Below are positions 1,062 through 31,714 of a stretch of DNA of 32,152 nucleotides, piece by piece. The notes under the pieces are model-generated. The model did not search any database and was not told the DNA's origin. It saw only the letters and a program-made list of their open reading frames with translations. Made by a program: the position numbers and the translations under genes. Numbering within the stretch: the first letter of the stretch is position 1; every line of letters starts with the position of its first letter. Source of the DNA: an uncultured Anaerolineales bacterium (GTDB lineage Bacteria; Chloroflexota; Anaerolineae; B4-G1); assembly GCA_964649415.1 (NCBI GenBank), contig CAZYSK010000067.1:191-32342 (forward strand), read 5' to 3'.

Positions 1062-1066
1062 GAGAA

Positions 1067-2788: not shown

Positions 2789-2825
2789 CGGCACTCCGGC
2801 GGAGACCTGACGGGGCGAACAAAAA

Positions 2826-2976
2826 GCATGGAGCGCCATCGGAATGGCGCCTTCAAATGGAGCATGGAGCGCCATCGGAATGGCGCCTTCAAATGGAGCA
2901 TGGAGCGCCATCGGAATGGCGCCTTCAAATGGAGTATGGAGCGCCATCGGAATGGCGCCTTCAGATAGAGCATGGA
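2826..2976. repeat. Family-1 hairpin repeat: four tandem copies of a 36-bp unit (ATGGAGCGCCATCGGAATGGCGCCTTCAAATGGAGC) containing the perfect palindrome GCGCCATcggaATGGCGC
   Basis: Four directly abutting units fill the intergenic space between the ThrC-REC gene and the hybrid HK gene. A partial copy is also present at 15..32 of the window. Confidence 0.85.
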
Positions 2977-16554: not shown

Positions 16555-17220
16555 CTACATCAGCATCAGCACGAGGGCCAGTGCCGATACGGCCGGCACG
16601 GTCAAGTTGTCGATGCCCCACGGTGAACATGCCTCGACGAGTACGGCGGCCAGCGCCGTCACGGCCGCGGCTCCCGCAGCAGTGACCGCGCCCAACGATC
16701 CAGGGCCCAGCAGCAGGAGCGGCACGAGCGTCGCGATCCAACTGATGAGGAACAGCACCACAGACCCCTCCAGCGAGCGGGTGCTCCCGGCGACGGTGTA
16801 GCGCCGCTGCCCGATGCGCCGCCCCACCACCGCGGCCAGCGCGTCCCCCCACGTCATGGGCATCAGGCTGGCCACCAGCAGGTCGGGCCTGCCCCACAGC
16901 AGCCAGATCAGGGCCGCGAACGATATCGGGAAATAGACGGTGCCCAACTGGCCCTTCTCCCCGGTCTCCATGGCCTTGAACGTCCCGCGCCAGTAGGACA
17001 AGGCGTTGATAACGACGAAGGCCAGCGGCGGAATGATGGCGAAGGCGCGGCGCTCGAACAGCAGTACCGTCCCGAAGGCCCACATGCCGACGGCGATGTG
17101 GATGAACTTGCGCGTGAAGTCCACGGAATAGCCGCGCCACATGCGCAGCCCCTCGGCGACGCCGATGGCGGCGAAAACGTAGGCGAAGGAGGATAGTAGA
17201 GCGATGGTATCTTGGGGCAT
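16555..17220 (-). CDS. CTP-transferase-1 family membrane protein (CdsA / phytol-kinase / dolichol-kinase-like)
   Basis: It is a polytopic membrane protein. The motifs TRKFIHIAVG, GDALAAVVGRRIG and EGSVVLFLIS match the VTE5/DolK/CdsA family. Its start lies 9 nt after the REC-CHAT stop. Confidence 0.55.
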   Translation of the reverse strand: MPQDTIALLSSFAYVFAAIGVAEGLRMWRGYSVDFTRKFIHIAVGMWAFGTVLLFERRAFAIIPPLAFVVINALSYWRGTFKAMETGEKGQLGTVYFPISFAALIWLLWGRPDLLVASLMPMTWGDALAAVVGRRIGQRRYTVAGSTRSLEGSVVLFLISWIATLVPLLLLGPGSLGAVTAAGAAAVTALAAVLVEACSPWGIDNLTVPAVSALALVLMLM

Positions 17221-17229
17221 CGTTGCACC

Positions 17230-18732
17230 TTACACTTGATGGATGAGGATGGGCGACAGCCACGTGGTATCGTTGCGATCAATGGACAATTCGCACCTTG
17301 CATGCCAAAGCGCAACTTCTGGTCTGCCCTGGTCCAGCAGGGACTTATAGAAGGCCAGGGCCAATCGCCGAGCGCCGTCGTCGGATACAGGCCAGCGATA
17401 GCCCACCACCGAGGGCACACCGGCCTGGGCGACTGCATCGGCCAATCCGAGGAAGTCATCATCGAGCAGAGCAACCTTTCCACCCGACGCTGTGCCGTAG
17501 CAACTGCTCAGATAGACGAGGCGCACCCCCGATTGCCCAAGTAGCAGCCTGACTTCGGTCGCCCGCATAGGCACGATGCCCCCTTGCTTGTCCGCCTCAG
17601 CCCAGAAGTAGAGGCTACTTTCTTCGGGAGAGTCGGCCTCATAGGAACCATGCCCTGCATAATGTACCACGTCGTAGTTCTGTGCCTTCAACTCTGCTCT
17701 GACGCGTTCGTATGTGGCTTGTTCCGTGGCGATGAGCTTCACGTCAACCGGGATACGATCCTGGCCTTTCAAATAACTGGATAGCTCTTGTGCCTCGGCA
17801 TCAGCCCCATCAATCGGAGGCAGAGTCTTCGAAGTCGTGTTCGACGCGATGATCAGCACGCGCAGTTCTTTCGTCAGTGCCAGCACGCGAGGCGAGATCG
17901 CTTCGCGCTTTGGGGTAGCCTCACACACAAACCGGGCAAGCGGATGCTGAAGCACCAGGTATTCCTGAGGGGCATCCGAGTACATGAACTCCATTGGAAG
18001 ACACACATACTCCCTGGGAGTCTCAAATTGCAGCGAGAGCAACTGGCTGCTGGCACGGGCCGTCAGATAGGTCTCTTTGGCCTCGGGTTGCTCACCGAAT
18101 ACGTCACGCCATAGGTCGCGACCGATCTGCTCGACCTGCAAACGCAGGTTGTTCCAGTCTTGCCTGGCAACTTCGGTCCTCCTCGCATATCGCTCGACGT
18201 CTAGCACCAGCGCCCTGCCCGACCGCCGGGAGCAAACGTGATAGCCACGCGATCTTATCGCCAAGTGCTGCCTTGCCACAAGAGACAGGGACAGCCTGGA
18301 TTCATCGCCGAAATTCTTAAGCTGTGGTTCTCTTGGCTCGTCGCATATCCCCGGCCTGTCTCTCGTCTCCGCGATGATCTCCAAGACTTGTTTGACCACA
18401 TCTGGCGTCTTCTCGACGAATTGCTCTACCCCAAGATACCGAATCGCGCGGACGATTTGCTTGGCCCTCACATAGCGCGTTAGCAAGATGACGTGGACCT
18501 TCGGATCCAGAGCGCGGAAAGCCATCGCCAGACTCGAACCACTTTCGTCCTCCTCGCCACCTTCGTGCAGACGTACATCAATGAGCGCAAAATCGAAGGG
18601 CTCCTGTATGACCGCGTCCAGTGCCTGTCCCTCATTGGATGCCACCCGCACGGTATGCCCCTCATCGGAGAGCCGCCCGCGCAATGTATCCCGGAAGTCA
18701 GGCTCATCGTCTACTACCAGTATCTTGTACAT
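17230..18732 (-). CDS. Response regulator with N-terminal REC and C-terminal CHAT (caspase-like) protease domain. The start is MYKIL at 18732 with a GAGGGGG RBS. The ORF extends to 18834.
   Basis: The REC domain reads ILVVDDEPD...LIDVRLHEGGEEDESG...ILLT...K. The CHAT His/Cys dyad context is VVHYAGHG and RLVYLSSCYGT, with the typical ~400-aa CHAT layout. Confidence 0.75.
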   Translation of the reverse strand: MYKILVVDDEPDFRDTLRGRLSDEGHTVRVASNEGQALDAVIQEPFDFALIDVRLHEGGEEDESGSSLAMAFRALDPKVHVILLTRYVRAKQIVRAIRYLGVEQFVEKTPDVVKQVLEIIAETRDRPGICDEPREPQLKNFGDESRLSLSLVARQHLAIRSRGYHVCSRRSGRALVLDVERYARRTEVARQDWNNLRLQVEQIGRDLWRDVFGEQPEAKETYLTARASSQLLSLQFETPREYVCLPMEFMYSDAPQEYLVLQHPLARFVCEATPKREAISPRVLALTKELRVLIIASNTTSKTLPPIDGADAEAQELSSYLKGQDRIPVDVKLIATEQATYERVRAELKAQNYDVVHYAGHGSYEADSPEESSLYFWAEADKQGGIVPMRATEVRLLLGQSGVRLVYLSSCYGTASGGKVALLDDDFLGLADAVAQAGVPSVVGYRWPVSDDGARRLALAFYKSLLDQGRPEVALWHARCELSIDRNDTTWLSPILIHQV

Positions 18733-18797: not shown

Positions 18798-19688
18798 TCA
18801 CTCGACTGCGTCCCACCTCTCCCGTATGTAGCACATGGCCGCCCTAACATCCAGGTTCCGCGTCGAATTGCCCATACGCACCCAGAACTCGTGAGAGTCA
18901 CCCTTGCCCAAGAAAACCGGCCTTGGGCTTTCGTCAATGGAGACGGCGCAGATGCGCTTGCCATCCATCAACTCGAAACGTGGGTGGATATACAGCACGT
19001 ATTCCGCACCCAAATTGACCTGGACAATATCGGTCAGCAACAGTTGGAATCCGTCGATATCTGACTTGCGCAGGGTCTGCAAGTCTCTTTCAATACCCAG
19101 TATCGTGCCATCGTCAGCGACGCCAAGGAGCAGATGCCCGCCCCCGCAATTCAGCATCCCGGCTATCGCCCTGGCAATCTCCTCCTGCAATCTCTTGTTG
19201 ACTCTGTTCTGCCTGTAGTCCCAACGAATACTGGACTTAAACTCCACCCGGTCATTCTCACCCTGGGCGATCAATTCGACGACATCTGGGGCCGCGCATT
19301 CAACCGCGCGCTTCACATATCCCGGCAATTGACTCACTTCGGATTTCTCCAGGAAGCCAAAGGCTGGCGCAACCCCGTCGTGGTCCGGTTGGAGGGCCTC
19401 ACGCACCATCTTGACGTCCGCGTAGCCGGTCAAGATGATGATAGCCACGCTGGGGTCCTTCTCTCTGATCTCGTGCATGAGCACAAGGCCGTCGCGGTTT
19501 TCTTCGTCAGCCTCGTCCAGGCGGACGTCCAGGACTGCGACGTGAAAACGCTCGGCATCCACCATGTGCAGAGCTTCGGCTCTGCTGGACGCCAAGCGTA
19601 CGTCGTAACCATCGTCTGACAGAAGACCCGACAGCGTCACGCGCACGTCGGGCAGATCATCCACGACAAGAACGCGCCCTCTGTGCAC
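18798..19688 (-). CDS. Response regulator with N-terminal REC and C-terminal AlbA_2 (Schlafen-like) domain. The start is GTG.
   Basis: The REC domain reads VLVVDDLPD...VLDVRLDEADEENRDG...IILTGY...EKS. The C-terminal segment ENDRVEFKSS...AIAGMLNCGGGHLLLGVADDGTILGI...FWVRMGNSTRNL matches the AlbA_2 / Schlafen core. It lies 24 nt downstream of the preceding REC gene. Confidence 0.7.
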   Translation of the reverse strand: MHRGRVLVVDDLPDVRVTLSGLLSDDGYDVRLASSRAEALHMVDAERFHVAVLDVRLDEADEENRDGLVLMHEIREKDPSVAIIILTGYADVKMVREALQPDHDGVAPAFGFLEKSEVSQLPGYVKRAVECAAPDVVELIAQGENDRVEFKSSIRWDYRQNRVNKRLQEEIARAIAGMLNCGGGHLLLGVADDGTILGIERDLQTLRKSDIDGFQLLLTDIVQVNLGAEYVLYIHPRFELMDGKRICAVSIDESPRPVFLGKGDSHEFWVRMGNSTRNLDVRAAMCYIRERWDAVE

Positions 19689-19712: not shown

Positions 19713-20114
19713 CTACCGCGCTAGTACTTCCCCCACAACCCGCACCAGATCCTCAGTTTCTGTCTTGGGGATATAGTTGGCCACAAGTCGCTGGCCCTGT
19801 GCATCCGGTTCCATCGCCCGACGCATTATATCAGATGTACCATAGCCCGTGATCATTACGACTCGGATTGCAGGCCAGCGGTGCCTGATCTCGGCTGCCA
19901 GATCCAGTCCCTCAGTGTTACCTTCGTCCGTCTCGTCCAGTCGCACGTCCAGCAGCGCTAGATCAAAATGACCAGTCCCAAGCAATTCCAGCGCCCTCTC
20001 CTGAGACCCGGCGCACTGGACGTCATATCCTGCGTCCTCCAGCAAGCCACTGAGCGTCGCGCGCCAGTCGGGCAGGTCATCCACTACCAAGACTCTGTTA
20101 GGTCCATCTGTCAT
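19713..20114 (-). CDS. Stand-alone CheY-like response regulator (REC only)
   Basis: The domain reads VLVVDDLPD...LLDVRLDETDEGNTEGL...VMITGY...IPKT. It shares the DVRL(D/H)E-acidic insertion with the REC domains of the CHAT and AlbA_2 proteins. It overlaps the upstream gene by 4 nt. Confidence 0.8.
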   Translation of the reverse strand: MTDGPNRVLVVDDLPDWRATLSGLLEDAGYDVQCAGSQERALELLGTGHFDLALLDVRLDETDEGNTEGLDLAAEIRHRWPAIRVVMITGYGTSDIMRRAMEPDAQGQRLVANYIPKTETEDLVRVVGEVLAR

Positions 20115-20503
20115 TGTCCCCCTCCTTCGCGGTTATCATGACGTCGATGCCCTATCGCGGCGGACGAGGGAATAATACCCTCGACGTGCTCAACCAGGTC
20201 CCGGTCACCGAAGGATTTGGCGAAATAGCGCTTGGCCCCCAGCCGGTAAGCCGCCAGGGCCTCCTCAGTCGTGGGCTGGACGGTCGTCACCACGACCCGC
20301 TTATCGGCGTATTTCTCGGCGATGATCTCAAGCACGTCCAGGCGGCGGGAACTCGCGATGACCAGATCGAACTGGTTCGCCTCAAGCTCGGTGATGGCAG
20401 TCTCCTTGTCAGGCGCGACGACTATCTCGAACTGGTTCAAGTCGTTCTTGGCGAACTCTATCCAGCAAGGTTCATCGTCGATGATCAGAATGCGCGTTCT
20501 CAT
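20111..20503 (-). CDS. Atypical (pseudo-)receiver domain protein that apparently lacks the phospho-acceptor Asp
   Basis: The REC fold is recognisable: ILIIDDEP in beta1, VVVTTV carrying the Thr, and YFAKSF carrying the Lys. Beta3 reads FDLVIASS, so the acceptor Asp position holds Ala. It overlaps both the HK stop and the next REC gene by 4 nt. Confidence 0.65.
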   Translation of the reverse strand: MRTRILIIDDEPCWIEFAKNDLNQFEIVVAPDKETAITELEANQFDLVIASSRRLDVLEIIAEKYADKRVVVTTVQPTTEEALAAYRLGAKRYFAKSFGDRDLVEHVEGIIPSSAAIGHRRHDNREGGGQ

Positions 20504-23500
20504 CGCGACACCTCCCCTCCTGCCCCTGGCGCTGGGATATGAACCAGCATGGTCGTTCCCGTGGAGTCGCTGCGCTCTATTTTAACATCACCGCCCAGAC
20601 TTTGCAACATCAGGCTGTTCAACCACAACCCCAGCCCGCTCCCCCCTCTCGGCTCCTTGGAAGGGACGGGCTTGGCGAACAGGCGTTGCTGAACTCTGGA
20701 TGGAATGCCTGGCCCCGTATCCCGAACGCGCACGCAGATGCTGCCGTCCGTCAGACGGCTGGCAACAGTCAACCGACCGCCGTCCTCCATCGCACGATAG
20801 GCATTGTCAGCCAGGTTGCGAAAGACCTCGGAGACCTGCCCAATGGGGGCCTGGATCTGCGGAATGGAGTCGTCCAGGTCCAGAGTAACCGCTATCGCCG
20901 AACGAACCGGGTCGGCTTGCCATCGCTCTCTCGTCCTGCCCACCACGTCATTCAGCACGGCATTGACGTCCACCGCCTGAACCTCGATCTCCCGCAGCGG
21001 CTCCTGGATGCGCGCGATGATCTCCGAGGTATAGCGGGCGTTGCGCTCGATGATGTCGAGGATCTCGGCGATGGTTTCGTCCGCGACGTCCACGCGCTTG
21101 CGCAGGCGCGTCACGTTGGGGACGATGATGTTGAAGGTGTTGTTGATGCGGTGCCGCAGCGCCGCCATTGCGGTGCCCAGCGTCGCCAGTTGCTTGGCGG
21201 CGATGGCCTCGCCGCGCGCTTGCTCATACAGCCGGGCGTTGTCCAGGGCGATGGCAGCCTGGCTGGCCATGGAGAGTAGGACTTGCAGGTCCTGCTCATC
21301 GTAGGCATGTTCTCGCTCCCAATCCTGCATAGCGATCACGCCCAGCGCCCTCTCGCCTATGACCATAGGAACACCTAGCCAAGAACCTGACAAACGTCCA
21401 ATGAACTCTTGGTGTCCGGGTTGCCCATACCACGCCTCGGCCTCCGCCGACGTGCGATGCAAGATGGGTTCCTTGGTGAGGATGATCTCTTCGGTCTTGC
21501 CCCGCCTCTCCATATCCGCCTGGCGGGATTCGTAGTGTACCCGTTCTCCCTGCTCCGTCGCCAGGCCGAAGTGGATCGTGTTCGCTTCCCCATCGTACAA
21601 GGCGATGTACATGTCCTGCGCGCCCGTCAGCCTCTTCGCCTGTTCGTAGATCAGTTCCAGGATCTCGTCTTGCTTCAGGCGAATCCCCGACGTCAATGTT
21701 CTCCCCACCTCGTTGAGCGCCGCCAAGGCCTCCACGCGACGCGCCAGCTTGCGGTTGACGTCGTAGTAGAGCTCTGCGTTGTCCAGCGCGATGGCGGCCT
21801 GGCTGGCCATGGAGGAGAAGACCTGCAAGTCTCGATCATCGTAGGCATGCTCTCGCTCCCAATCCCACAGGGCGAGCACGCCCAGTACTTTCTCACCCAC
21901 CACCATCGGAACACCCAGCCAAGAGAGTGGAACTCGTCCAATGAACTCTTGGTGTCCCGGCTGCCCATACCAGGCTTCGGACTCCGCCAGGGTGCGATGC
22001 AAGATGGGTTCCCTGGTAAAGATGACCTCTTCGGTCTTGCCTCGCGTCTCCATATCCGCCGGGCGGGATTCGTATTGCACCCGTTCGCCATGCTCCGTCG
22101 CCAGGCCGAAGTGGATCTCCCCCTTTTCCTCATCGTATAAGGCGATGTACATATCCTGTGCGCCAGTCAGCCTCTTCGTCTGTTCGTAGATCAACTCCAG
22201 GATCTCGTCCTGCTTCAGGCGAATGCCGGACGTCAGTGTCTGCCCAACCCCATTAAGCACCTGCATAGCATCGCTAAACGCCTGCATAGCCCCATAGGCA
22301 CGTGCGCTCTCAATGGCCACCGCGGCTGCCCCGGCAAGCGCCTCAACCAGGCGCACGTGATCCTCTGCGAATGCTCCAGCCTCCGTGCTCTCCAGGTCCA
22401 GGATCCCAATCACCCGGTCACCATAACGCAAGGGTGCCGCCAGTTCAGACTGCACCTCGGCGTACCATTCCTGGTAATACGGATCGTCCTGGACATCGCG
22501 GCAGACGTAGGTTTCTCCCGTCGCAACCACGTGCGCGCTGATGCTGTTCCCAGAGAGAGGCAGACGGGACGTGCTGCGCGTCGGTTCCTTCTCCACCGCG
22601 TTCATGGCCCCGAAGCGCAGCTCAGTGCCGTGCTCGTCCAGCAACCAGACGCCGGTGTAGGTGGCCGGGGTAAGCCGGGCCGCGTATTCCGCGATGCGCT
22701 TCAGCAAGCTTTCCAGCGGCGCCTTTCCAATGAGGGCGTATATCTCCTGGAGGACTCGAATATCGTCCACACGTTCCTGGAGCCTGGCCCGGGTCTCCTC
22801 GTACAGCTCGGTGGTGCGGAATGCCACGGCCGCTTGCGCCGCCAGGGCCTCTGCCAGGTGCTGGTCGGCCTCGCTGAAGGCGTTCAGCCGGCTGCTTTCG
22901 GCATTGAGCACGCCGACCAGCCTATCGCCCGCCAGCATCGGAACGTCCAACTCCGACCGGGTGGCCTCCACGTGACACTTGTACCGGGGATCCTGCGACA
23001 CATCCGTGACGCGCACCGGCTCGCGCGTCTGGGCTGCGGTGCCGATCAATCCCTCACCCAGATCGATGCTCCTGTCGGGAGACTTGCCCATCGCGTACCT
23101 GAATTCCAGGCTTCCGGTTCCCGGATCGAACACGCTGATGGACCCAAACTCGCAATTCAGGAGTTCTAGGGACCGCTCCAACGTCCGCTGCAGCAATTTG
23201 TCTCTGTCCAGCACGGAGGTGATGTCACGTGCGATATCTTGAAGCGTCTCGCGTTGCTGGAATAGCTGAGCGTTGCGAATGGCGACCGCCGCCTGGTTGG
23301 CGAACAACTGGATCAGTTCCTGCTGTTCCGCCGGGAACCCTTGTGGTGTGCGGTAGTTGACGAACAAGATACCCACCGCCTCGTCGCCGACCAGCAACGG
23401 AATCGCGGCCGTGGAGGCGATCTGCTCCCTGAAGATGAAGCGCCGCTCCGGCATGCCCTCTCGGGCGATTTTGAAGGGGGCCGAAAGAAGCGGTTCATGC

Positions 23501-25281
23501 TGCGCGTCCGCAGCGAAGAGGGGGCGACTCAACGTAAGGACCTGCATCGCCACGTCGTCAGGCAGGATTTTCTTGGACGGCTTGACTTCCACCAGCATTC
23601 TTCCTCCAGAGACGTGATCAGCGACGCGATCCCGTCTGCCTGGACTGTAGCGATACAGCTCAACCAGATCAGCGCCTAACACACCCCTGGCCTGTTGTGC
23701 AATCTGCTGCAGCAGATCCTCAAGACTTTCCCCCGTCACCTCGACGGTGCTCAGACGCTGCCCCACCTTGTTCAGCGCTTCTAGCGCCTGGATCCGCCTC
23801 TGGATCTGCTCATACACGCGGGCGTTGTGGATCGCCATGGCCGCCTGGTTGGCAAGCAGTTCGATGACCCTCCGTTGATCAGGTGGAAACTCCTGGCGGG
23901 TCCGGTAGTTGACGAACATGACACCTACGGTCTCGCCAGCGGCCTTGAGCGGCACGGAAGCCGAAGACAGGACCCCCTCGCGCACGACGAAGCGCCGGTC
24001 CGGGCGCTCAGGACGCTCGACGGTGAACGAGCCGCTGAGCAAGCGATCAGCCTGGGCATCGCGCGTATAAAGCGGCTCGCCGCGCTTGACAACTTCTACC
24101 GCGATGTCGTCCCCGAAGATGTGCTCCTTGACGACATCGGGGACCCGCCGCTCCCCTTCCAGGATCGGCGGGAGGATGTACCGCTCCTCCCTTTCGACGT
24201 ACTGATACACGTCAACCAGGTCGGCACCCAGCACATCCCTGGCGCTCCGCGCCACGTGCTGCAATACCCTTGGCAATCCTCTCGCCGACACCTCGGCCGA
24301 TAGCAGTTCCTCCCCGATCCGATGCAACCTCTCCAGGGCCGCCGACCGGCTGGTCTCCTGCTCGATCAGCCTGGCGTTGCGCAATGCGGCCGCCGCCTGA
24401 CCTGCCAGTGTCTCCAGGAGCACCTGGTCCCGTTCGTCAAAGGCCGCCAGGCCGTCCTTGTCGGCCGAGATCACCCCGACAACCTCGTCGCCCAAGGTCT
24501 TGATGGGCACCACGAGCATTGAGCGTTCAGAGGCCTGTGAAGACCAGCCACGGACAAACCGCGGGTCATGCACCGCGTCCATGACGAGCGCCGGCTCCCC
24601 ATTCTGGGCTACCCAACCGGCCAATCCCTCCCCAATGGCAAAGCTCCTCTGCTCCACGCCCTCCGCGGACCGCGCCGCCATTTTGAGCACATCGGCGCTC
24701 TCATCCATCCGGAATATGCTGACGTGCTGGCAATCCAACACGCGCGCCGCAGACTGTGTGATATGCTCGAGCAGCCTGGGCAGTTTCAGGTCGGAGTTGA
24801 TCCAGAGGCTCACTTCGTTCAGGACCGCCAGATCCCGTATCCATCGCTGCGCGACAGCTACCTGCGCGGCCAGACCCTGGGCCAGAGCCTGCTGAGAATC
24901 GCTGAAGTCTCTAGCCTCGTACGCATAGACGTCCATGACTCCCACGACCGTGTTTTTCACCCGTAACGGCACTACCATGGCCGACTCAAGCCCCACGGCG
25001 GATGCCTCTTCCTTGAACGCCCAGCGGGCGTCCGAGGCGATGTCTTTGACTACAATCGGGCGCCCCGTCTTGAACACCTCCGACCCGACGCTGATTTCGT
25101 CCAAAGGCAGGGCCGCCGTGCGCATATAGTCACCCGGCAGGCCCTCGGATGCAACAAGGCGCAGAGCTTGCTTGACCTCATCGAGGAGCCAGATGCCGAC
25201 CGGCAACTCCAGGATCGAGCCGATTGTACCTACCAACGGTTGAAGAAACCGCTTTTCGCCAGGCCCTGTAGAGGCAGACAT
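20500..25281 (-). CDS. Soluble multi-GAF sensor histidine kinase (about 8-9 GAF domains, HisKA and HATPase_c), 1593 aa
   Basis: It has no TM helices. GAF-like units with inter-domain ALxNARLYEQ linkers recur along the protein. The C-terminal H-box is AALRHRINNTFNII. HATPase_c reads RNLADNAYRAMEDGGRLTV...VRDTGPGIP...GGSGLGLWL. A strong GGGGGGAG RBS precedes the ATG. Confidence 0.85.
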   Translation of the reverse strand: MSASTGPGEKRFLQPLVGTIGSILELPVGIWLLDEVKQALRLVASEGLPGDYMRTAALPLDEISVGSEVFKTGRPIVVKDIASDARWAFKEEASAVGLESAMVVPLRVKNTVVGVMDVYAYEARDFSDSQQALAQGLAAQVAVAQRWIRDLAVLNEVSLWINSDLKLPRLLEHITQSAARVLDCQHVSIFRMDESADVLKMAARSAEGVEQRSFAIGEGLAGWVAQNGEPALVMDAVHDPRFVRGWSSQASERSMLVVPIKTLGDEVVGVISADKDGLAAFDERDQVLLETLAGQAAAALRNARLIEQETSRSAALERLHRIGEELLSAEVSARGLPRVLQHVARSARDVLGADLVDVYQYVEREERYILPPILEGERRVPDVVKEHIFGDDIAVEVVKRGEPLYTRDAQADRLLSGSFTVERPERPDRRFVVREGVLSSASVPLKAAGETVGVMFVNYRTRQEFPPDQRRVIELLANQAAMAIHNARVYEQIQRRIQALEALNKVGQRLSTVEVTGESLEDLLQQIAQQARGVLGADLVELYRYSPGRRDRVADHVSGGRMLVEVKPSKKILPDDVAMQVLTLSRPLFAADAQHEPLLSAPFKIAREGMPERRFIFREQIASTAAIPLLVGDEAVGILFVNYRTPQGFPAEQQELIQLFANQAAVAIRNAQLFQQRETLQDIARDITSVLDRDKLLQRTLERSLELLNCEFGSISVFDPGTGSLEFRYAMGKSPDRSIDLGEGLIGTAAQTREPVRVTDVSQDPRYKCHVEATRSELDVPMLAGDRLVGVLNAESSRLNAFSEADQHLAEALAAQAAVAFRTTELYEETRARLQERVDDIRVLQEIYALIGKAPLESLLKRIAEYAARLTPATYTGVWLLDEHGTELRFGAMNAVEKEPTRSTSRLPLSGNSISAHVVATGETYVCRDVQDDPYYQEWYAEVQSELAAPLRYGDRVIGILDLESTEAGAFAEDHVRLVEALAGAAAVAIESARAYGAMQAFSDAMQVLNGVGQTLTSGIRLKQDEILELIYEQTKRLTGAQDMYIALYDEEKGEIHFGLATEHGERVQYESRPADMETRGKTEEVIFTREPILHRTLAESEAWYGQPGHQEFIGRVPLSWLGVPMVVGEKVLGVLALWDWEREHAYDDRDLQVFSSMASQAAIALDNAELYYDVNRKLARRVEALAALNEVGRTLTSGIRLKQDEILELIYEQAKRLTGAQDMYIALYDGEANTIHFGLATEQGERVHYESRQADMERRGKTEEIILTKEPILHRTSAEAEAWYGQPGHQEFIGRLSGSWLGVPMVIGERALGVIAMQDWEREHAYDEQDLQVLLSMASQAAIALDNARLYEQARGEAIAAKQLATLGTAMAALRHRINNTFNIIVPNVTRLRKRVDVADETIAEILDIIERNARYTSEIIARIQEPLREIEVQAVDVNAVLNDVVGRTRERWQADPVRSAIAVTLDLDDSIPQIQAPIGQVSEVFRNLADNAYRAMEDGGRLTVASRLTDGSICVRVRDTGPGIPSRVQQRLFAKPVPSKEPRGGSGLGLWLNSLMLQSLGGDVKIERSDSTGTTMLVHIPAPGAGGEVSR
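21236..22315. repeat. Intragenic tandem duplication: two ~540-bp (180-codon) GAF-domain units with high nucleotide identity inside the multi-GAF HK gene
   Basis: Unit 1 starts with GCGTTGTCCAGGGCGATGGC at 21236 and unit 2 with GCGTTGTCCAGCGCGATGGC at 21776, a period of 540. The encoded peptides LTSGIRLKQDEILELIYEQ(T/A)KRLTGAQDMYIALYD...GQPGHQEFIGR... are near-identical. Confidence 0.85.
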
Positions 25282-25486: not shown

Positions 25487-26827
25487 TCAATTGCGCCGCG
25501 CTTGCCTCCAGGCATCCAATTCAGCCTGGTATTCCGCTTCTGCAAACGCCAACCCCTTTTCCCGTAGCATCATAGCTGTGAGAACGTGAGGCAGGCCCTT
25601 TCGCTTCTCCAGGAACAGGATTTGAGAACCAGTGAGCGTATGCCCACCATTATCACTCAGGAATCGGTCAAGTTGGCGTCGCCCGCGCACCACGGTTCTC
25701 ATGAAACGCTGGGACTCACCCAAGAAATAGGTCATCAAGCGCTTCTCGTCCTCCGGCGTCGCCCGCAGGGAGCGATGAACCGTCCGGGAAATACAGCCCA
25801 TCACTCCCGGCAGGAATTCCCCGGACTCGATGCCGAGGACAATTTGCCGCGTCACGATGCCCCGTATCAGTAGCTTGACGATTCTCTCCCGGCCGTTCTT
25901 GCCCGGGGGAGGAGCCCCGTCCGCGACCAGGGTATACAGTGCCTTGGAATAGTCCGCAATCACGTGCTCGCTGGCACGGACCAGTGATTCCGGCATGTGA
26001 GAGGCACGCACGAAACCATGGATCGTGTCCACAAGGGGCCGGTAGGCATCCGTCTCAAACACCGACGCAGCGCCCTGCGAAATCATGGCCACGCGCTCGG
26101 TGCCGATGACCGTCTCAGCGAAGGGCTCCGCCATCTGACGCAGAGACCTGCTCTGGGGATCGAGTTCGCGGGAGATGAAGAGGGAATTGGAGAACTCGAC
26201 AAAGCGTCCGCACTTGCAGCCCGGCCTGCAAGCCGGCCCGCAGGCCTTTTCGGCACCCAGGTCATAGAACAACTCCGTGTTCGGCCCTGCCTTGCGGGGG
26301 GTCTCCATACCGTCAATCCCGCCGCCTTGCACCCAGTAGTTGTCATCCGGTCCCAGGCCAATGACGTGATCCCCGGGCACCCCTACCTCGATCCAGGCTC
26401 GACGTGTGACCCCGTCCCCCGGCAGATGCTCGCCCAAGACCGCCCCGCCCTCAAAATAGGAGACCCAGATGCGGCTCTGATCTATGCCGAGAACAGACGT
26501 GGCCAGTGTCCACATACGCCGAATGGTTTCGGCTTTCCCGTTTGGACCAAAGACAAATGCACCGGGCATTTCGAACAAGCTCAGGTGCGTGCCGTCAGTT
26601 CCGACCTTGTCGAGATCGAAGTGGCGAAAACACTCCTGAACGAGGACGAATTGGTCGCCGGGTCTTTCGTCCACCCGGGCCAGGGAGGTCTCTATCTGAA
26701 CTAGGCCGGCACTCATCACGTAAGACATGGGAATAGATGGGTGAAGCATAGGGGCGCGGGGCAGCGGGTGAAAGCCAAGTCCTTCGTAGTAACCTACAAA
26801 GCGCCGACGGATTGCAGAAGCGTTCAT
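25487..26827 (-). CDS. Truncated, divergent alanyl-tRNA-synthetase-like protein (class II catalytic core plus tRNA-recognition domain only; no editing or C-Ala domains), 446 aa from the ATG at 26827
   Basis: Alignment to AlaRS is recognisable. N-terminal IRRRFVGYYEGLGFHPLP corresponds to IRQ.FLDFF..KGH. QECFRHFDLDKVG..THLSLFEMPGAFVFG corresponds to QRCVRAGGKHNDLENVG..HHTFFEMLGNFSFG. AGPNTELFYDLG corresponds to CGPCTEIFYD. RFVEFSNSLFI corresponds to RYIEIWNLVFMQF. LTGSQILFLEKRKGLPHVLT corresponds to the tRNA-recognition DAFKLYDTYGFPLELT. The AGGKHND ATP-binding segment is shortened. The upstream in-frame ATG at 26881 lies upstream of the predicted promoter. Confidence 0.65.
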   Translation of the reverse strand: MNASAIRRRFVGYYEGLGFHPLPRAPMLHPSIPMSYVMSAGLVQIETSLARVDERPGDQFVLVQECFRHFDLDKVGTDGTHLSLFEMPGAFVFGPNGKAETIRRMWTLATSVLGIDQSRIWVSYFEGGAVLGEHLPGDGVTRRAWIEVGVPGDHVIGLGPDDNYWVQGGGIDGMETPRKAGPNTELFYDLGAEKACGPACRPGCKCGRFVEFSNSLFISRELDPQSRSLRQMAEPFAETVIGTERVAMISQGAASVFETDAYRPLVDTIHGFVRASHMPESLVRASEHVIADYSKALYTLVADGAPPPGKNGRERIVKLLIRGIVTRQIVLGIESGEFLPGVMGCISRTVHRSLRATPEDEKRLMTYFLGESQRFMRTVVRGRRQLDRFLSDNGGHTLTGSQILFLEKRKGLPHVLTAMMLREKGLAFAEAEYQAELDAWRQARRN

Positions 26828-26861
26828 ACTGACCCCTCTCACAGCTACACGCGGAACAGAG

Positions 26862-26900
26862 GCTACAATATTGTACCACACTTATCGGGGTTATGCAACA
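26862..26900 (-). promoter_or_regulatory. Predicted sigma70-like promoter of the AlaRS-like gene: -35 TTGCAT, 17-bp spacer, extended -10 TGgTACAAT
   Basis: On the minus strand the sequence reads TTGCATAACCCCGATAAGTGTGGTACAAT. A ~35-nt 5'UTR with a GAGAGGGG RBS precedes the ATG at 26827. A second copy with TTGCAC / TATAAT is conserved at 32060..32088. Confidence 0.55.
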
Positions 26901-26996: not shown

Positions 26997-28037
26997 CTAT
27001 GCCGGCTTCAGAAGTGCGCTCACGATACCGATATCCTGCCACGTGACCGTTTCCTCCTCAGGCACGCCACCGATCACAATTGGGGCAACGGGGGGAAACT
27101 GGATCTTTCCCGTCCCCGGATCACGGACAAACCTGCCATACTCCCACTCTTTCTGATCGACGTTCCATACCACCGCGTGCCCCGTCGCCGGTGGGACAGC
27201 ACCTCGCGCCCAGGCCGCCAGGACGTAGTCCCCCTCGTTGCTGTGTGGTCCAGCCCACCGATCTCGTGGGACGCGGACTGCAAAGCTGCGAGCATCCCAC
27301 GGGAGCCACAGGTTGGTGCCAAACGGCATGCCGTCTTCCGGGTGATACAAACGGTATCTCCGCTCATCGATATCGATCTCCGAGGGGATCAAGCAGCCTC
27401 TCGGCTCCGCACGCAGGAGCCCATAGCCGTTCCCTGTGACCACGGGGATATGCACGGCTGCTGCGCCATCGACCAGCGAAAGGTCATCCGCCAGACACCG
27501 GCACAGGGCGTTGATCCAACTGAGTGCGTGCTGGCACTTGTCTATCTGCTGACTGCATTCTTGTGTTCGCGATGGGTCTCTGAAGCGATTATCCTCCCAA
27601 TACTTGATCGCTTCGCCAAAGGCCTTGATCGCACGCTGGTAATCGACCAGCGCCTTGGTCCTGGATCCTAGCGCACAGTGGAGCAAGCCCCGCAGGTACA
27701 CGACGACAGCTTCGATATGGCGCTTGTTCTGGTAGCCAGGCAGTAAGCCAAGCGCTTTGGCAGCCTCTTGACAACAGTCCAGCGCCGGTCCCCATCGATC
27801 AGTCTCTCGATACAGGTCACCCATCCAGATACAAAGGACGCTCTCACTTGCAGAATGATGACAGGCTCGCGCGAACGCGTGGGCCTCTTCAATGCATCGA
27901 ATAGCCCTATTCACGTCGCCCAGGCACCAGTACTCTGAGCATTTCATCGTGGCAGCGGAGACTACAGATGGCAGCCCATTCTCGCACACCAGTGCTCTAG
28001 GCGCCAGGTCTGGGGGCAATCCCGTGATCACAGGCAT
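26997..28037 (-). CDS. Hypothetical protein with an N-terminal Cys-rich TPR-like helical domain and a C-terminal LexA/S24-peptidase-like beta domain that lacks the catalytic Ser and Lys
   Basis: The N-terminal ~190 aa are helical with TPR-like A/L/Y periodicity. The C-terminal HIPVVTGNGYGLL...FAVRVPRDRWAG..GDYVLAAW...GHAVVWNVDQKEWEYGRF...VTWQDIGIVSALL aligns to LexA segments LPLVGRVAAGEPLL, LLRVSGMSMKDIGIMDGDLLAV, GQVVVARIDDEVTVKRL and GLAVGV, with Ser replaced by Arg and Lys by Gly. A GGAG RBS is 8 nt upstream. Confidence 0.45.
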   Translation of the reverse strand: MPVITGLPPDLAPRALVCENGLPSVVSAATMKCSEYWCLGDVNRAIRCIEEAHAFARACHHSASESVLCIWMGDLYRETDRWGPALDCCQEAAKALGLLPGYQNKRHIEAVVVYLRGLLHCALGSRTKALVDYQRAIKAFGEAIKYWEDNRFRDPSRTQECSQQIDKCQHALSWINALCRCLADDLSLVDGAAAVHIPVVTGNGYGLLRAEPRGCLIPSEIDIDERRYRLYHPEDGMPFGTNLWLPWDARSFAVRVPRDRWAGPHSNEGDYVLAAWARGAVPPATGHAVVWNVDQKEWEYGRFVRDPGTGKIQFPPVAPIVIGGVPEEETVTWQDIGIVSALLKPA

Positions 28038-28265
28038 GGTTACACTCCAGTGGCTCTATGCCGGTCTGCCAGAACACCACCAATCACCGAATAGTCCTTG
28101 ATCTCGCAAGCTCTTTCAGACTACACTGCAGAAGCATCTGCATACCGCAGCATGGCCGCGTAGCGGAGTAACTCAGATGCGCCGGTTGAGGCAGCAAGTT
28201 GATCGTGTCGCCTCCAGCGATCCAGGATCTCGGAGAGCGCCATCATCCTGCGCTGGTGGCAACTC

Positions 28266-29714
28266 TCATGCCCCTCGTATCTCTGGCAGCAGACGTCCAA
28301 GCTCGGAGCCAGCATCATCCGTGCCCGGTAGCCCATCGCCAACCAAACTATGCGTATTCGCCAGCAGTTGCTCCAATTGGCTCAGCATCCGCAGCGTCTC
28401 GGGCGGCAAGAACATACGCTTATGCGGATCGTAGGCCATCCAGCGCAAGGTCTCAGTGAAACGCATGGCCATCAGGTAGGGATGTAGTTCTTCTTCACTG
28501 CTGACAAGTGGCCGGATCGTCTCAATAAGCGTCAGCACCATCTCTGCTTGTGCCTGCACCCGCGCAGCATCCAGACGCGCTATCTCCGCCTCCCCCTCTG
28601 CCTGGTCCTCTACTGCCCTCCGTCTCCAATCGGCCTGCCAGGCTTCGACCCACTGGGCATAGATTTTCTCATCCTTTACGTCAATCTCACCCAGATCAAC
28701 GTTGAGGATCCGGGCCCCCTTGTCATTGCCCACCGAGAGTTTCTCGCGCAAGCGCTTTTCAAGACGTTCCCGGATCTCCTCACGGGGATTCCCCCGGCCT
28801 GGCCAGGGCGGCTGCATCAGCCAATCGAGACGGTAGTCAGCCAAGACCATCCGCAGGATCCCCTCAACCTCGCCAATCATCACGCGCCCCGTCCATTTCC
28901 TGGTCTGTTCCGGGTGATCCGGCTCGTGGATACGGACCCATGTGCTTGTGGCTGCGTTGAAGACCGCCTCATCCGTGTGCGCCAGCGACCTCGCCGGCAC
29001 CTCGCCCTGTTGGCCAGCGTCCCGGTCGTCAATCTTGAAAGTGATGTCAGCCTGGCAGGAAACAGGGATTCCCTCCTTCGTCATCGCCGTAACCGCAAGT
29101 GGCCAGTGCTGTTGTCGCAGGTCAATGACCTCCCAGACCCGCTCGTAGCGCTCAAGGAAGCAAAAAGCGGGGCCCAAGACCCGGCTCAGTCTTCCACCTC
29201 TCTCCAGAACCGCCGCGCTGTCACCGTGAACCACCACAAACCCTGGACCGCCGATGCGGTCACAAGTCGTGCCCGCCCCAAGCGTGATATGCCCTTCTTC
29301 CACGATCAGCAGCGGCTTGAGCGCATCCCCTGGCATGCCGAACATGCTCCGATGAGCGACACCTTGGGCCTCCTCCAGATCCTCCGTGTCGTAGAGGTCG
29401 CGGACAAAACGCGAGGCCAGGCGTGAGATAGCTATCAAAGCTATCAGCAATGGAACGGAACTGAAGAAGCTCCTGACAAGAAAGATGAAGCCGTAGCGGA
29501 TGCAGTCCTTCACCAGTCTCAGAAGACTCCCCACGTAGGACAGATCAAACGGGGCATGGAGAAACTCGATGGCGCATCCAATGAACACCACTAATAGGAT
29601 TGGCCCATGTACCGCAAACATGCGCCAGCGATGCTGACGCTTCAACCTCAGGCGCGTCGACCGCCCGCGTCCGGACAGGGCCCACCTAAGCAGATCTTCA
29701 GGCAGTGAGATCAT
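28266..29714 (-). CDS. SPFH/band-7 (stomatin/flotillin-like) domain membrane protein, 482 aa, with an N-terminal TM region
   Basis: The N-terminal hydrophobic helices are ILLVVFIGCAIEF and VPLLIALIAI. The SPFH core reads LLIVEEGHITLGAG...GPGFVVVHGDSAAV...EVIDLRQQ...VTAMTKEGIPVSCQADITFKID. A coiled-coil Ala/Glu-rich tail follows (AEGEAEIARLDAARVQAQAEM). Its ATG overlaps the upstream gene's TGA (ATGA). Confidence 0.7.
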   Translation of the reverse strand: MISLPEDLLRWALSGRGRSTRLRLKRQHRWRMFAVHGPILLVVFIGCAIEFLHAPFDLSYVGSLLRLVKDCIRYGFIFLVRSFFSSVPLLIALIAISRLASRFVRDLYDTEDLEEAQGVAHRSMFGMPGDALKPLLIVEEGHITLGAGTTCDRIGGPGFVVVHGDSAAVLERGGRLSRVLGPAFCFLERYERVWEVIDLRQQHWPLAVTAMTKEGIPVSCQADITFKIDDRDAGQQGEVPARSLAHTDEAVFNAATSTWVRIHEPDHPEQTRKWTGRVMIGEVEGILRMVLADYRLDWLMQPPWPGRGNPREEIRERLEKRLREKLSVGNDKGARILNVDLGEIDVKDEKIYAQWVEAWQADWRRRAVEDQAEGEAEIARLDAARVQAQAEMVLTLIETIRPLVSSEEELHPYLMAMRFTETLRWMAYDPHKRMFLPPETLRMLSQLEQLLANTHSLVGDGLPGTDDAGSELGRLLPEIRGA

Positions 29715-31714
29715 CTCCCCCCTACCCTCCTTTGCAGCCGCCGCATGATGCTGTCCACGTCGCCTGGAAGGAAATCGCGCAGCGCCGATCGTTGAAGCAG
29801 GCTCTCCAGCGCCTCAACGAAGTATTGTAGGATAGCATCCGTATGGACAGGGGGGGCCTCGTCCCGTATCCGCTCAATGCGTTTAGCGATATCCAGTATG
29901 ATTTCCACCTGGGCCTGTGCCCGCGCTTGTTCTACCCGACTTATTCGCACAGACTGTCCTTCTGCCCTCTGTATCGCGATTCTGCGTGCCCAATTGGCCC
30001 GCCAGGCCTCGATGCGTTTCTCGATCACGTCGTCGTCCATCGGCACCAGGTCGCTGATCCCCCCGCCCACGCGCTTGATGCCGAACTTGGGCAGTTCGGT
30101 GTCCAGTCTTTGCCGCAGTTCATCGGCGATCCGAGCACGCGGGTGTTTCCTCAAGTCTTCATATAGCTCAAAGGGCGCGTAGAGTTCGTCGAACTCGTAG
30201 TGAGAGATGATGTCGCGCACGATAGGCTCACCAACCAACTGGGGCAAGTCGTACCACTCGCACTTCGTGTTGTCTTCAGGGGTCTGGGCCAGGCACACCT
30301 GCATTGTTTCCGCAGTCACCGCCTTGTAGACATCGCTAGCACGATAGGGAAAGCCCTCGCCAAGCTGAGGCCTAGCATCGCCCGTGCTCATCTGGAATGG
30401 GACGAAAGTGACAACCCGGATGCCGATGCCGTCCTTGGTCCACGCATCAACGTGAAAGGCGCGTAACTGAACTCGCAGATCGATCACGTGCGTGGGCGTC
30501 TCGTACGCGTTCGTGAAGACAAGACCAGGCCCTCTGGCCCCTCTGATATCGGTGCTGGTGCATACGACGACGAGGTGATCGCAGCCGGTGAGGACGATAC
30601 CCGGCCCGGCCAGGAACTCCGCAAAGACGTCTCCCTCCAACCGCTGTATCAGCCGCTCCCTCGCTTCCAACCACGTTCGTGTTCCTTCAGTGCGTTCGGT
30701 GATTCGTTCGTCTACGACAACGTGGTATGGGTAGTTTGTGCCCAACGCATACGTCACAAGGCAACGGAGAGCTGTGCGATGCTGTTCGTACCACTCTCTT
30801 CGCGCTTCCCTGTTCCGTGAGCGGCGCAACAGATCAACGAAGTCAAAAATCTCATCGCAAAAGGTAGGGATGGTGCCCGCATCCCGTGGGCTACGGCTAC
30901 CTCGATACAGATCAAGCGGCGGTAAAGGCAGGAGTGAGGCAGACCTGAAGAAGAGCGTCCCCACAGGCATGAGAAGCGCTGGCAGCGTGATAAACAGCAG
31001 CCCAGACCAACCACACCGCCAGCCAATACAGACCGTGTCCCAGTAGTAGACCCACACGGCAGAAAGCATCCACCGACGGAATCTGTCATGGTTGGGTTCC
31101 AGACGGAGAGAAGGGCGAACCTGCTCAGGCGAGAAGACTACAGCGAGCAAGAAGAGGATCAATGAGCCTTCGCCGTCGAGCGCCAATGCCAGCACCAGGG
31201 CGACGAAGGCACCAAACGATGCCGGAATGAGCAAACGTCTTTCTCGCCACTTCCACGTAACCGTCTCTTTCCATCGCCATACAAGTCCCTGGGAGACCTC
31301 TACCTTGTCCCTTCTCGCGCTTTGCCTTACACAGGAAAGCCAGAAGCGGATAGGAAACAGGAGATAGGCAAGAACCAAAGCCAGCACGAGAAGGAACGCC
31401 AGGAATGCCAAGATCGCCAGTTGCGCATCGAAAGGCAGGCCGGAGGTACTCAAGAAGAGGTCGTGCAACCTTCCATGGAACCTGAAGAGGATACCAGATG
31501 CCAGCAGGAAGTACAAGAGTATGCACTTCAGGCCTGTTCGTATCCACTGAGCAGTCTGGGCTGATGCGCTTTTCCCCGAGAACCCGGCCAGCCGGAGAAA
31601 CGCACAAAGTGCCATAGCGCCCGCGCCGGCAAATGCAGCAGGCACCAACAGCAGAGCGAAGTTGCCCCAAGCATCCAGAAGGGTCTCGTCCAGAACCGCC
31701 ACGATCTCAGCCAC
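29711..31714 (-). CDS. SPFH/band-7 domain membrane protein, 667 aa, with a large polytopic N-terminal membrane region; a paralog of the downstream gene (GTG start)
   Basis: The N-terminal ~250 aa contain multiple hydrophobic helices. The SPFH core reads GPGIVLTGCDHLVVVCTSTD...VIDLRVQLRAFHVDAWTKDGIGIRVVTFVPFQ. The coiled-coil tail IEAWRANWARRIAIQRAEGQSVRISRVEQARAQAQVEIIL parallels the paralog's AQWVEAWQADWRRRAVEDQAEGEAEIARLDAARVQAQAEMVL. A GAGGTG RBS is present. Confidence 0.7.
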   Translation of the reverse strand: MAEIVAVLDETLLDAWGNFALLLVPAAFAGAGAMALCAFLRLAGFSGKSASAQTAQWIRTGLKCILLYFLLASGILFRFHGRLHDLFLSTSGLPFDAQLAILAFLAFLLVLALVLAYLLFPIRFWLSCVRQSARRDKVEVSQGLVWRWKETVTWKWRERRLLIPASFGAFVALVLALALDGEGSLILFLLAVVFSPEQVRPSLRLEPNHDRFRRWMLSAVWVYYWDTVCIGWRCGWSGLLFITLPALLMPVGTLFFRSASLLPLPPLDLYRGSRSPRDAGTIPTFCDEIFDFVDLLRRSRNREARREWYEQHRTALRCLVTYALGTNYPYHVVVDERITERTEGTRTWLEARERLIQRLEGDVFAEFLAGPGIVLTGCDHLVVVCTSTDIRGARGPGLVFTNAYETPTHVIDLRVQLRAFHVDAWTKDGIGIRVVTFVPFQMSTGDARPQLGEGFPYRASDVYKAVTAETMQVCLAQTPEDNTKCEWYDLPQLVGEPIVRDIISHYEFDELYAPFELYEDLRKHPRARIADELRQRLDTELPKFGIKRVGGGISDLVPMDDDVIEKRIEAWRANWARRIAIQRAEGQSVRISRVEQARAQAQVEIILDIAKRIERIRDEAPPVHTDAILQYFVEALESLLQRSALRDFLPGDVDSIMRRLQRRVGGR

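Follow-up and report, generated by a model that had tools for sequence, protein, structure and literature searches.

The 32,152-nucleotide (nt) stretch of contig CAZYSK010000067.1 analysed here (the window), which comes from an uncultured Anaerolineales bacterium of the Chloroflexota (assembly GCA_964649415.1), carries a minus-strand gene for a shortened relative of alanyl-tRNA synthetase (AlaRS). The comparison of this AlaRS-like protein with its relatives showed that the constant partner of the family is a predicted GAF protein, which is usually a histidine kinase and is sometimes fused to the AlaRS-like domain. We infer that the protein has an input role in a phosphorelay. The reading that we favour, and to which we give slightly better than an even chance, is that the AlaRS-like protein is the ligand-binding sensor, or input module, of a GAF-kinase His-Asp phosphorelay and that it acts by direct contact. 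A sensor subunit working in this way is favoured because of the N-terminal fusions, the start/stop overlaps and the precedent of GCN2. An earlier note on this DNA had suggested that the paralog has a non-housekeeping role, for example a regulatory one; the GAF-kinase operon linkage, the fusions and the lost residues of the alanine pocket and of the G3:U70 reader all support a non-housekeeping paralog that is probably regulatory.

For the comparison of gene neighbourhoods, we used 46 distinct loci, in each of which the paralog is full-length and is followed by 3 kb or more of sequence. The conserved order is that of the AlaRS-like gene, a multi-GAF histidine kinase, two stand-alone receivers (REC), REC-AlbA_2 and then REC-CHAT or REC-TIR, with variable genes upstream. 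A GAF or kinase gene was found either immediately downstream (at a gap of -95 to +205 nt, often overlapping) or fused to the AlaRS-like gene in 42 of the 46 loci, and REC genes followed the kinase in 38. Among the four exceptions, two still have a GAF protein as a neighbour. The isolate Thiofilum flexile DSM 14609 (L066) encodes a GAF protein of 1029 amino acids (aa) without a detected kinase domain, the gene of which shares an overlap of 4 nt with the AlaRS-like gene, and in Ca. Thiothrix singaporensis a GAF-HATPase-REC hybrid lies 964 nt downstream of it. Because the downstream linkage is conserved while the upstream genes differ, the AlaRS-like gene is placed by gene order at the head of a two-component operon and not at the tail of an SPFH cassette, where the earlier note had put it; SPFH genes, a recurrent neighbour of a minority, occur in 7 of the 46 loci.

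The partnership also takes the form of gene fusions. The AlaRS-like domain precedes GAF domains in the fusions P0130, P0134 (which has HATPase_c too) and L043, and two AlaRS-like domains precede GAF and HATPase_c in P0122 and P0123, whereas P0121 is a tandem pair of AlaRS-like domains. Ten loci (L044, L045, L048, L050, L052, L054-L057 and L073) have a large multi-GAF gene without a detected kinase domain just upstream and, where the contig is long enough, a shorter GAF-kinase downstream, an arrangement that looks like a split long kinase.

The operon of the window (Table 1) runs on the minus strand from 26827 to at least 17230, the genes after the second stand-alone receiver being spaced by 9-65 nt, and no terminator-like site was found between the AlaRS-like gene and the kinase gene. 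With an H-box/HATPase_c kinase and four REC proteins, its predicted products make up a two-component (His-Asp) system. A transmembrane-like segment was sought in the 1593-aa kinase and none was found. Of all segments of this kinase, only the GAF subtype that is duplicated in tandem has a recognisable counterpart in every one of the 41 partner proteins compared, across phyla; the solved structure nearest to it is 5w10, a cyclic-nucleotide-type GAF, and this match is weak (E 6e-4). The first stand-alone receiver (REC1) has Ser at the phospho-acceptor position when read by eye (FDLVIAS versus FDLALLD in the next receiver), and it may be a pseudo-receiver.

The proteins encoded after the stand-alone receivers join a receiver to an effector domain. 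The place of the REC-CHAT gene is taken by REC-TIR in relatives, whose outputs also include REC-TCAD9/APH-like kinase, REC-deoxyribosyltransferase-EAD8, REC-PNP and EAD7-REC. In PADLOC, the REC-CHAT protein of the window gave weak matches to BovA and SAVED_CHAT. PADLOC-DB 2.0 held no match for the AlaRS-like protein, and the REC and CHAT proteins had weak domain-level matches only; membership in a known defence system was rejected, as no PADLOC model was matched. The multi-pass membrane protein of 221 aa is possibly encoded by the last gene of the operon and had no Pfam, PADLOC or PDB match. The idea that it is a gasdermin-like substrate of CHAT was not supported, as it is a multi-pass membrane protein without matches.

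The AlaRS-like protein strongly matched the class II aminoacyl-tRNA synthetase (aaRS) profile tRNA-synt_2c of Pfam (E 1.4e-55, profile positions 2-427 of 552), and it aligned from end to end with AlaRS catalytic fragments of known structure (9jdn/9jc7, 3hxu and 1riq). The AlphaFold model, made with 24 homologues as input, had a predicted local distance difference test (pLDDT) score of 89.2 and a predicted template modelling score (pTM) of 0.88. Its best PDB matches in Foldseek were 9jc7, 3hxu and 1riq, with template modelling (TM) scores of 0.74-0.80 and E values of about 1e-29. The protein ends at the expected onset of the editing domain, 205 nt before the next gene, and tblastn of six full-length AlaRS against the 32 kb window gave no match past residue about 470 anywhere. 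The earlier description of a stand-alone AlaRS catalytic core that ends at the editing domain is thus borne out by Pfam, by the fold match and by this tblastn null. On the NCBIfam equivalog TIGR00344 (alaS), the protein scored 196 bits against a cutoff of 457 and covered profile positions 2-425 of 847; with a score below the cutoff and an incomplete four-domain architecture, it is predicted to fall outside the canonical alanine--tRNA ligase class.

A truncated architecture is also what a broken housekeeping gene, that is, a truncated or frameshifted remnant of alaS, would have, and nothing else speaks for such a remnant. The tblastn search revealed no frameshifted remainder, and no trace of the editing or C-Ala domain, downstream or elsewhere in the window. 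Of the signs that the earlier note had named as speaking against its idea, neither the frameshifted remainder nor the lack of a class II profile match was thus observed. The predicted fold is confident, and there are hundreds of intact homologues of 445-450 aa with family-specific invariant residues in five phyla. We regard the chance of a broken alaS as negligible; as far as the sequence data show, this explanation is already refuted.

A word-indexed search returned more than 120 stand-alone homologues of about 445 aa with 55-81% identity. An exhaustive search gave 435 cluster representatives at E<=1e-30, a number that also includes canonical AlaRS; here the paralogs scored about 210-680 bits, and canonical AlaRS, with 30-32% identity, appeared from about 205 bits. 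The split between paralogs and canonical AlaRS was recovered in 100 of 100 neighbour-joining bootstraps, and this tree analysis showed the AlaRS-like protein to be a member of a monophyletic AlaRS-derived family. A pattern scan of one genome per species (185,579 species) found 70 paralog loci. The carriers are Chloroflexota (Anaerolineae, Caldilineaceae, Promineifilaceae and Thermoflexia), cyanobacteria (Phormidium, Leptolyngbyaceae and Spirulina), Saprospiraceae, a metagenome-assembled genome (MAG) of Methylococcaceae, Thiothrix, Thiofilum, Thiolinea and a few others, and the family spans at least five bacterial phyla. Most of these are lineages known as filamentous. No relatives of the family were found on the viral contigs of IMG/VR, and on the plasmids of PLSDB the family was absent, canonical alaS being the only match (31% identity or less). 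The module is duplicated as a tandem gene pair in L056 (8607..11395) and as copies on two contigs of the same MAG in L049 and L076; in the duplicated copies examined (the L056 gene pair and both halves of P0122) every active-site residue is kept. NCBI names one member a hypothetical protein, and JGI names members alanyl-tRNA synthetase.

To compare residues, 48 paralogs were aligned with 45 canonical AlaRS of 850 aa or more, and a second, phylum-spanning alignment agreed. The positions were mapped to E. coli numbering via 3hxu and onto the ATP/alanine complex 9jc7. R68, F85 and R245 are invariant in all paralogs aligned, the halves of the tandem fusions included. They correspond to Arg68 (Arg68/Arg69), Phe89 and Arg232 of 9jc7, where Arg68/Arg69 holds the alpha-phosphate of ATP and Phe89 together with Arg232 stacks the adenine (PMC12143591). 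D71, H81, W165, E185, R208, E211, N214, G242 and E244 are invariant in the paralogs as well, and among these E211 also counts as an ATP anchor. The class II ATP site (motif 2 Arg, stacking Phe and motif 3 Arg) is therefore predicted to be kept in the AlaRS-like family.

The alanine pocket differs by three fixed changes, each of which adds side-chain bulk: Val214, Asp235 and Gly237 of E. coli are replaced by L216, E238 and V240. The motif E-x-V-x-G-x-[ED]-R was found in 154 of the 157 paralogs and in none of the 45 canonical sequences, whereas D-x-G-x-G-x-[ED]-R was found in 44 of the 45 canonical sequences and in no paralog. Asp235 is the acidic residue by which the alpha-amino group in Ala, Ser or Gly adenylates is held (PMC12143591). 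The alanine pocket of canonical AlaS (Asp235, Gly237 and Val214) thus appears to be absent from the AlaRS-like protein. The modelling and active-site mapping that the earlier note had called for gave the fold of an AlaRS fragment, in which the Arg residues of motifs 2 and 3 are kept and the Ala-binding Asp is Glu. The shortening of the RAGGKHND segment by four residues (AGGK), to which that note had also pointed, is real when compared with E. coli-type AlaRS and is not distinctive, since 36 of the 45 canonical AlaRS share the short R-x-x-D loop; the motif-2 loop deletion was rejected as a diagnostic for the same reason. A cluster of four Cys (C196/C200/C204/C206) was also considered as a family-specific metal or redox site and was rejected, because this C-x-C cluster is found in many bacterial AlaRS of the canonical kind too.

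The residues that read G3:U70 are reversed in charge. Asn303 and Asp400, which are Asn and Asp in the canonical sequences, correspond to K310 and K408 of the AlaRS-like protein; the position of Asn303 is Lys or Arg in most paralogs, and that of Asp400 in nearly all. The E. coli AlaRS variants D400A, D400N and N303D are nearly inactive (PMC6055181). Meanwhile, the helix beside the reader positions stays basic (PGKNGRERIxKLLIRG). As basic residues persist there, binding of a nucleic acid by the AlaRS-like protein remains plausible on this residue pattern, with an altered specificity.

These residues bear on the possibility that the protein is an auxiliary mini-AlaRS, a working minimal synthetase that supplies Ala-tRNA under particular conditions and is co-transcribed with the kinase by chance. 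The mini-AlaRS of Tupanvirus (TuAlaRS) and the E. coli catalytic fragment of 461 residues have the same two-domain architecture and are active synthetases. TuAlaRS, like the AlaRS-like family, has no G3:U70 readers of the N303/D400 type, showing that the fragment architecture can suffice for aminoacylation and that the equivalents of N303 and D400 are dispensable there (PMC10036535). The ATP-site residues of the AlaRS-like protein are intact too. However, unlike these two enzymes, the AlaRS-like family has fixed substitutions of D235, G237 and V214 and is linked to a kinase. All aligned members have Glu in place of Asp235, the essential alpha-amino binder (PMC12143591), with Val for Gly237 and Leu for Val214, and Lys stands at the position where D400A and D400N make E. 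coli AlaRS virtually inactive (PMC6055181). The TIGR00344 score of 196 against 457, the patchy distribution (70 loci among the genomes of 185,579 species), the tandem or multiple copies per genome (L056; L049 and L076) and the fusion to kinases, for which a housekeeping enzyme offers no rationale, also speak against a mini-AlaRS, and we consider it very unlikely.

The earlier note had further thought of a natural-product pathway, that is, of natural-product or non-ribosomal aminoacyl transfer onto a non-tRNA small molecule or carrier. The precedent is AcmF, a truncated AlaRS-like enzyme of nucleoside-antibiotic (ascamycin) biosynthesis in Streptomyces sp. 80H647, with which the comparison was made from its published description (PMC12945691). 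Like the AlaRS-like family, AcmF has the aminoacylation and tRNA-recognition domains only, its clade is non-canonical and separate from housekeeping AlaRS, and its D232E change falls at the alanine alpha-amino-binding position, which is E238 here (PMC12945691). In contrast to the AlaRS-like family, which keeps all ATP-binding residues and N214, AcmF is reported to have lost most of them and to carry N219Q, and it belongs to an antibiotic gene cluster with a second AlaRS, whereas the AlaRS-like family lies in, or is fused to, two-component systems in 42 of the 46 loci. Biosynthetic genes occur in the conserved part of the neighbourhood in 0 of the 46 loci, GAF/histidine kinase and REC genes being conserved instead, and a second, resistant AlaRS copy analogous to AcmD is not adjacent. 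With nothing in the neighbourhood pointing to a natural-product pathway, such a role is highly improbable.

According to the sensor reading that we favour, the AlaRS-like protein would bind ATP or AMP at the retained class II adenine-nucleotide site. The co-ligand would be an aminoacyl or tRNA-acceptor-end moiety other than free alanine or G3:U70-bearing tRNA(Ala), as the pocket would be narrowed (Val to Leu, Asp to Glu and Gly to Val) and the acceptor-stem surface would present Lys/Arg. The partner kinase would be informed of the occupancy of this site through direct contact with its conserved GAF subtype, and this contact would set the autophosphorylation of the kinase and thereby the phosphorylation state of the receiver-effector proteins, the outputs of which would be protease, NADase-type and nucleic-acid-directed domains. 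The setting would be stress- or invader-triggered cell-fate control in mostly filamentous lineages, and we consider such a setting likely.

Two regulatory paralogs of another synthetase help to place this reading. The HisRS-like domain of GCN2 is likewise a domain derived from a class II aaRS and physically coupled to a kinase as its regulatory input, and its proposed activating ligand is uncharged tRNA (PMC6421407, PMC6919976). This likeness is a functional analogy without homology: the parent synthetase is HisRS instead of AlaRS, the kinase is an eIF2alpha Ser/Thr kinase instead of a histidine kinase, the domain of life is different, and in the AlaRS-like family the nucleotide site is invariant. 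The second case, HisZ, is a stand-alone HisRS-like paralog that does not charge tRNA and serves as a ligand-sensing regulatory subunit of ATP-phosphoribosyltransferase. It differs in the parent synthetase and in the partner, and it is without the catalytic residues that the AlaRS-like family retains.

Several observations weigh against the sensor reading. Regulatory aaRS paralogs such as HisZ and the HisRS-like domain of GCN2 are catalytically degenerate. In the AlaRS-like family, the ATP-site and catalytic residues are invariant across five phyla, which fits an active enzyme at least equally well. The tRNA-recognition domain varies more in its C-terminal part than the same region of canonical AlaRS does (entropy 2.49 versus 1.81), and members of the Thiothrix type are truncated in this domain to 380-384 aa; because of this variability and truncation, tRNA is less likely to be a universal ligand. 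Moreover, the loss of the reader residues does not prove that tRNA(Ala) recognition is lost, since the Tupanvirus mini-AlaRS charges tRNA(Ala) without equivalents of N303 and D400 (PMC10036535). Regarding the biological setting, no known defence-system model of PADLOC matches the operon, and what suggests a conflict or programmed-death role is the domain content of the predicted effectors only.

The invariant active site is also the starting point for an explanation in which the AlaRS-like protein is an active enzyme and its product is the ligand of the conserved GAF, by which the kinase is switched. The protein could be an adenylate-forming enzyme with a new small substrate, or, in the manner of AcmF, it could take an aminoacyl group off aminoacyl-tRNA and attach it to an adenosine nucleotide. 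The product would be aminoacyl-adenylate-like or a dinucleotide, and the logic, leading from an enzyme through a second messenger and its receptor to an effector, would be that of CBASS-, Pycsar- or Thoeris-type systems. The motif 2 Arg, the motif 3 Arg, the stacking Phe, E211 and N214 are invariant in five phyla and in the halves of the tandem fusions, as would suit such an enzyme, and D235E is shared with AcmF, which alanylates an adenosine sulfamate from Ala-tRNA(Ala) (PMC12945691). GAF is the universal partner even where no kinase domain was detected (L066), stand-alone multi-GAF genes adjoin too, the conserved GAF subtype weakly resembles the cyclic-nucleotide-type GAF 5w10 (E 6e-4), and in conflict systems GAF is counted as a nucleotide-binding receptor domain (PMC7159879). 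However, the N-terminal fusion to the GAF-kinase and the start/stop overlaps suggest a 1:1 complex and not a diffusible, amplified signal. AcmF reportedly lacks most ATP-binding residues and has N219Q, whereas the AlaRS-like family keeps the ATP residues and the Asn, and all three pocket changes enlarge side chains, so that a fitting substrate is not evident. The two models overlap; we regard the signal-making enzyme as the main rival, a serious but clearly less probable explanation than a sensor acting by direct contact.

A bolder form of the hypothesis is that an AlaRS-derived enzyme-sensor founds an unrecognised immune or programmed-death pathway of filamentous bacteria, which would give bacteria a counterpart to the tRNA sensing of GCN2. 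We hold this to be rather unlikely. The cue would come either from tRNA acceptor ends that are uncharged, cleaved or foreign or from a toxin resembling an aminoacyl-adenylate. The protein would make or hold an adenylate-type ligand, and a dedicated GAF subtype would read this ligand and fire the phosphorelay, which would activate the CHAT, TIR, Schlafen/AlbA_2, PNP and TCAD9 effectors and lead to cell suicide.

The effectors and adaptors of the family are those of the conflict and apoptosis-like systems of multicellular prokaryotes described by Kaur, Burroughs, Iyer and Aravind in 2020 and 2021 (PMC7159879, PMC8195603). The shared repertoire consists of CHAT, TIR, TCAD9/APH-like kinase, EAD7, EAD8, PNP and receiver domains, and the taxa overlap as well (Chloroflexota, filamentous cyanobacteria and other lineages known as filamentous). 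Unlike those systems, which are built on STAND NTPase or MoxR-vWA ternary cores, the present one has a GAF histidine kinase and an AlaRS-derived partner, and the conserved operon showed no STAND or MoxR-vWA core. AlaRS is unmentioned in either paper (PMC7159879, PMC8195603). In the full-text literature, subscription-only literature being outside the scope, we found no paper in which histidine kinases, GAF, CHAT/TIR or EAD/TCAD systems are connected with an AlaRS-like protein. In one review, an "alaS" domain match is given for a single orthocaspase from cyanobacteria (PMC7475262); this was judged too weak and was left unused.

To our knowledge, regulatory aaRS paralogs are few, and each of them (GCN2, HisZ, EpmA and AcmF) opened a field. 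In the present family, the core of AlaRS has apparently become a partner dedicated to histidine kinases, to which it is fused in some cases; its nucleotide site is intact, and its amino-acid pocket and acceptor-stem surface are rebuilt. In at least five phyla, the partner kinases would drive effectors of the caspase-like, TIR and Schlafen-like types that are fused to receivers. If the sensor reading is true, the family would represent a new class of two-component input domain, a route along which translation or tRNA status, or a phage-derived tRNA-like cue, controls the effectors of cell fate or immunity in multicellular bacteria, and a phosphorelay-controlled version of the effector toolkit that has so far been described under STAND and MoxR-vWA NTPases. 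The gene content suggests a link, so far undescribed, by which a translation-related cue would inform decisions on cell fate or immunity. A cultured carrier is available in Thiofilum flexile DSM 14609 (L066). On the practical side, the JGI label "alanyl-tRNA synthetase" could make metabolic reconstructions count the paralogs as AlaRS.

Table 1. Positions of the predicted features in the window.
Feature	Position	Strand	Description
AlaRS-like gene	25487..26827	-	446 aa; class II catalytic and helical tRNA-recognition domains; no editing or C-Ala domain
Family signature motifs			CFR[HY]FD, GAFxFG, L216, E238-T-V240-x-G-x-E-R245, PPPGK310, LEK408xxGLP
RBS-like (ribosome-binding-site-like) element	26840..26833	-	GAGAGGGG; precedes the ATG at 26827
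Promoter-like element	26870..26898	-	TTGCAT (26898..26893), 17-nt spacer, TGg and TACAAT (26878..26870); read from the sequence
Sensor histidine kinase	20500..25281	-	1593 aa, cytoplasmic; eight GAF and HATPase_c (Pfam); H-box ALRHRINN (by eye)
Tandem duplicated GAF in the kinase	21226..22257	-	aa 1009-1188 and 1189-1352; 74% aa and 76% nt identity
Stand-alone receiver 1 (REC1)	20111..20503	-	130 aa; start overlaps the kinase stop by 4 nt; Pfam
Stand-alone receiver 2 (REC2)	19713..20114	-	133 aa; start overlaps the REC1 stop
REC-AlbA_2 (Schlafen-type)	18798..19688	-	296 aa; Pfam; conserved in L004, L006, L008, L012 and L014
REC-CHAT (caspase-like protease domain)	17230..18732	-	500 aa; Pfam
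Multi-pass membrane protein	16555..17220	-	221 aa; 9 nt past REC-CHAT; recurs, after the receiver genes, in L010, L011, L012 and L045
Upstream cassette	26997..31714	-	SPFH 29711..31714, SPFH 28266..29714, TPR protein 26997..28037 (Pfam)
Double-receiver protein	114..1061	+	in the second signalling cluster (114..4447)
PLP-dependent enzyme (PALP)	1067..2788	+	fused to a C-terminal receiver domain
Hybrid kinase	2972..4447	+	REC-HisKA-HATPase
CARDB-domain protein	6649..9165	+
GNAT acetyltransferase	9454..10746	-	housekeeping neighbour
UvrD/PcrA helicase	10812..13100	-	housekeeping neighbour
UvrC	13595..15448	+	housekeeping neighbour

An alternative GTG start at 26881 is possible for the AlaRS-like open reading frame. 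It falls within the promoter-like element, and because of this, and because the homologues have 445-446 aa, the ATG at 26827 is the likely start. The promoter-like element matches the consensus at 3/6 and 5/6 positions and has an extended -10, and a sigma-70 consensus scan reported no promoter site at its threshold; to call this promoter near-consensus, as had been done before, is an overstatement, as it is a moderate one. Neither tRNA genes nor Rfam matches, which might have provided a cis RNA element hinting at the ligand, were found in the window.

The SPFH-SPFH-TPR cassette lies directly upstream of the AlaRS-like gene in five other loci (L010, L011, L012, L045 and L071). The cassette-bearing loci include a Thermoflexia genome, in which the AlaRS-like protein is only 43% identical. 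The earlier note had described a cassette of membrane-scaffold and pseudo-protease genes; the two SPFH/Band_7 genes were confirmed, but a protease-like domain could not be verified in any upstream gene, and the pseudo-protease was dropped. The C-terminal 160 aa of the TPR protein had no Pfam or PDB match even at E<=10, and this region was modelled by AlphaFold at a pLDDT of 30-65, with three homologues found. About 150 aa at this C-terminus are fast-evolving. Elsewhere in the window, a second, unusual signalling cluster, in which a pyridoxal phosphate (PLP)-dependent enzyme is joined to a receiver, occupies one end of the stretch, followed by the CARDB-domain protein and the housekeeping neighbours.

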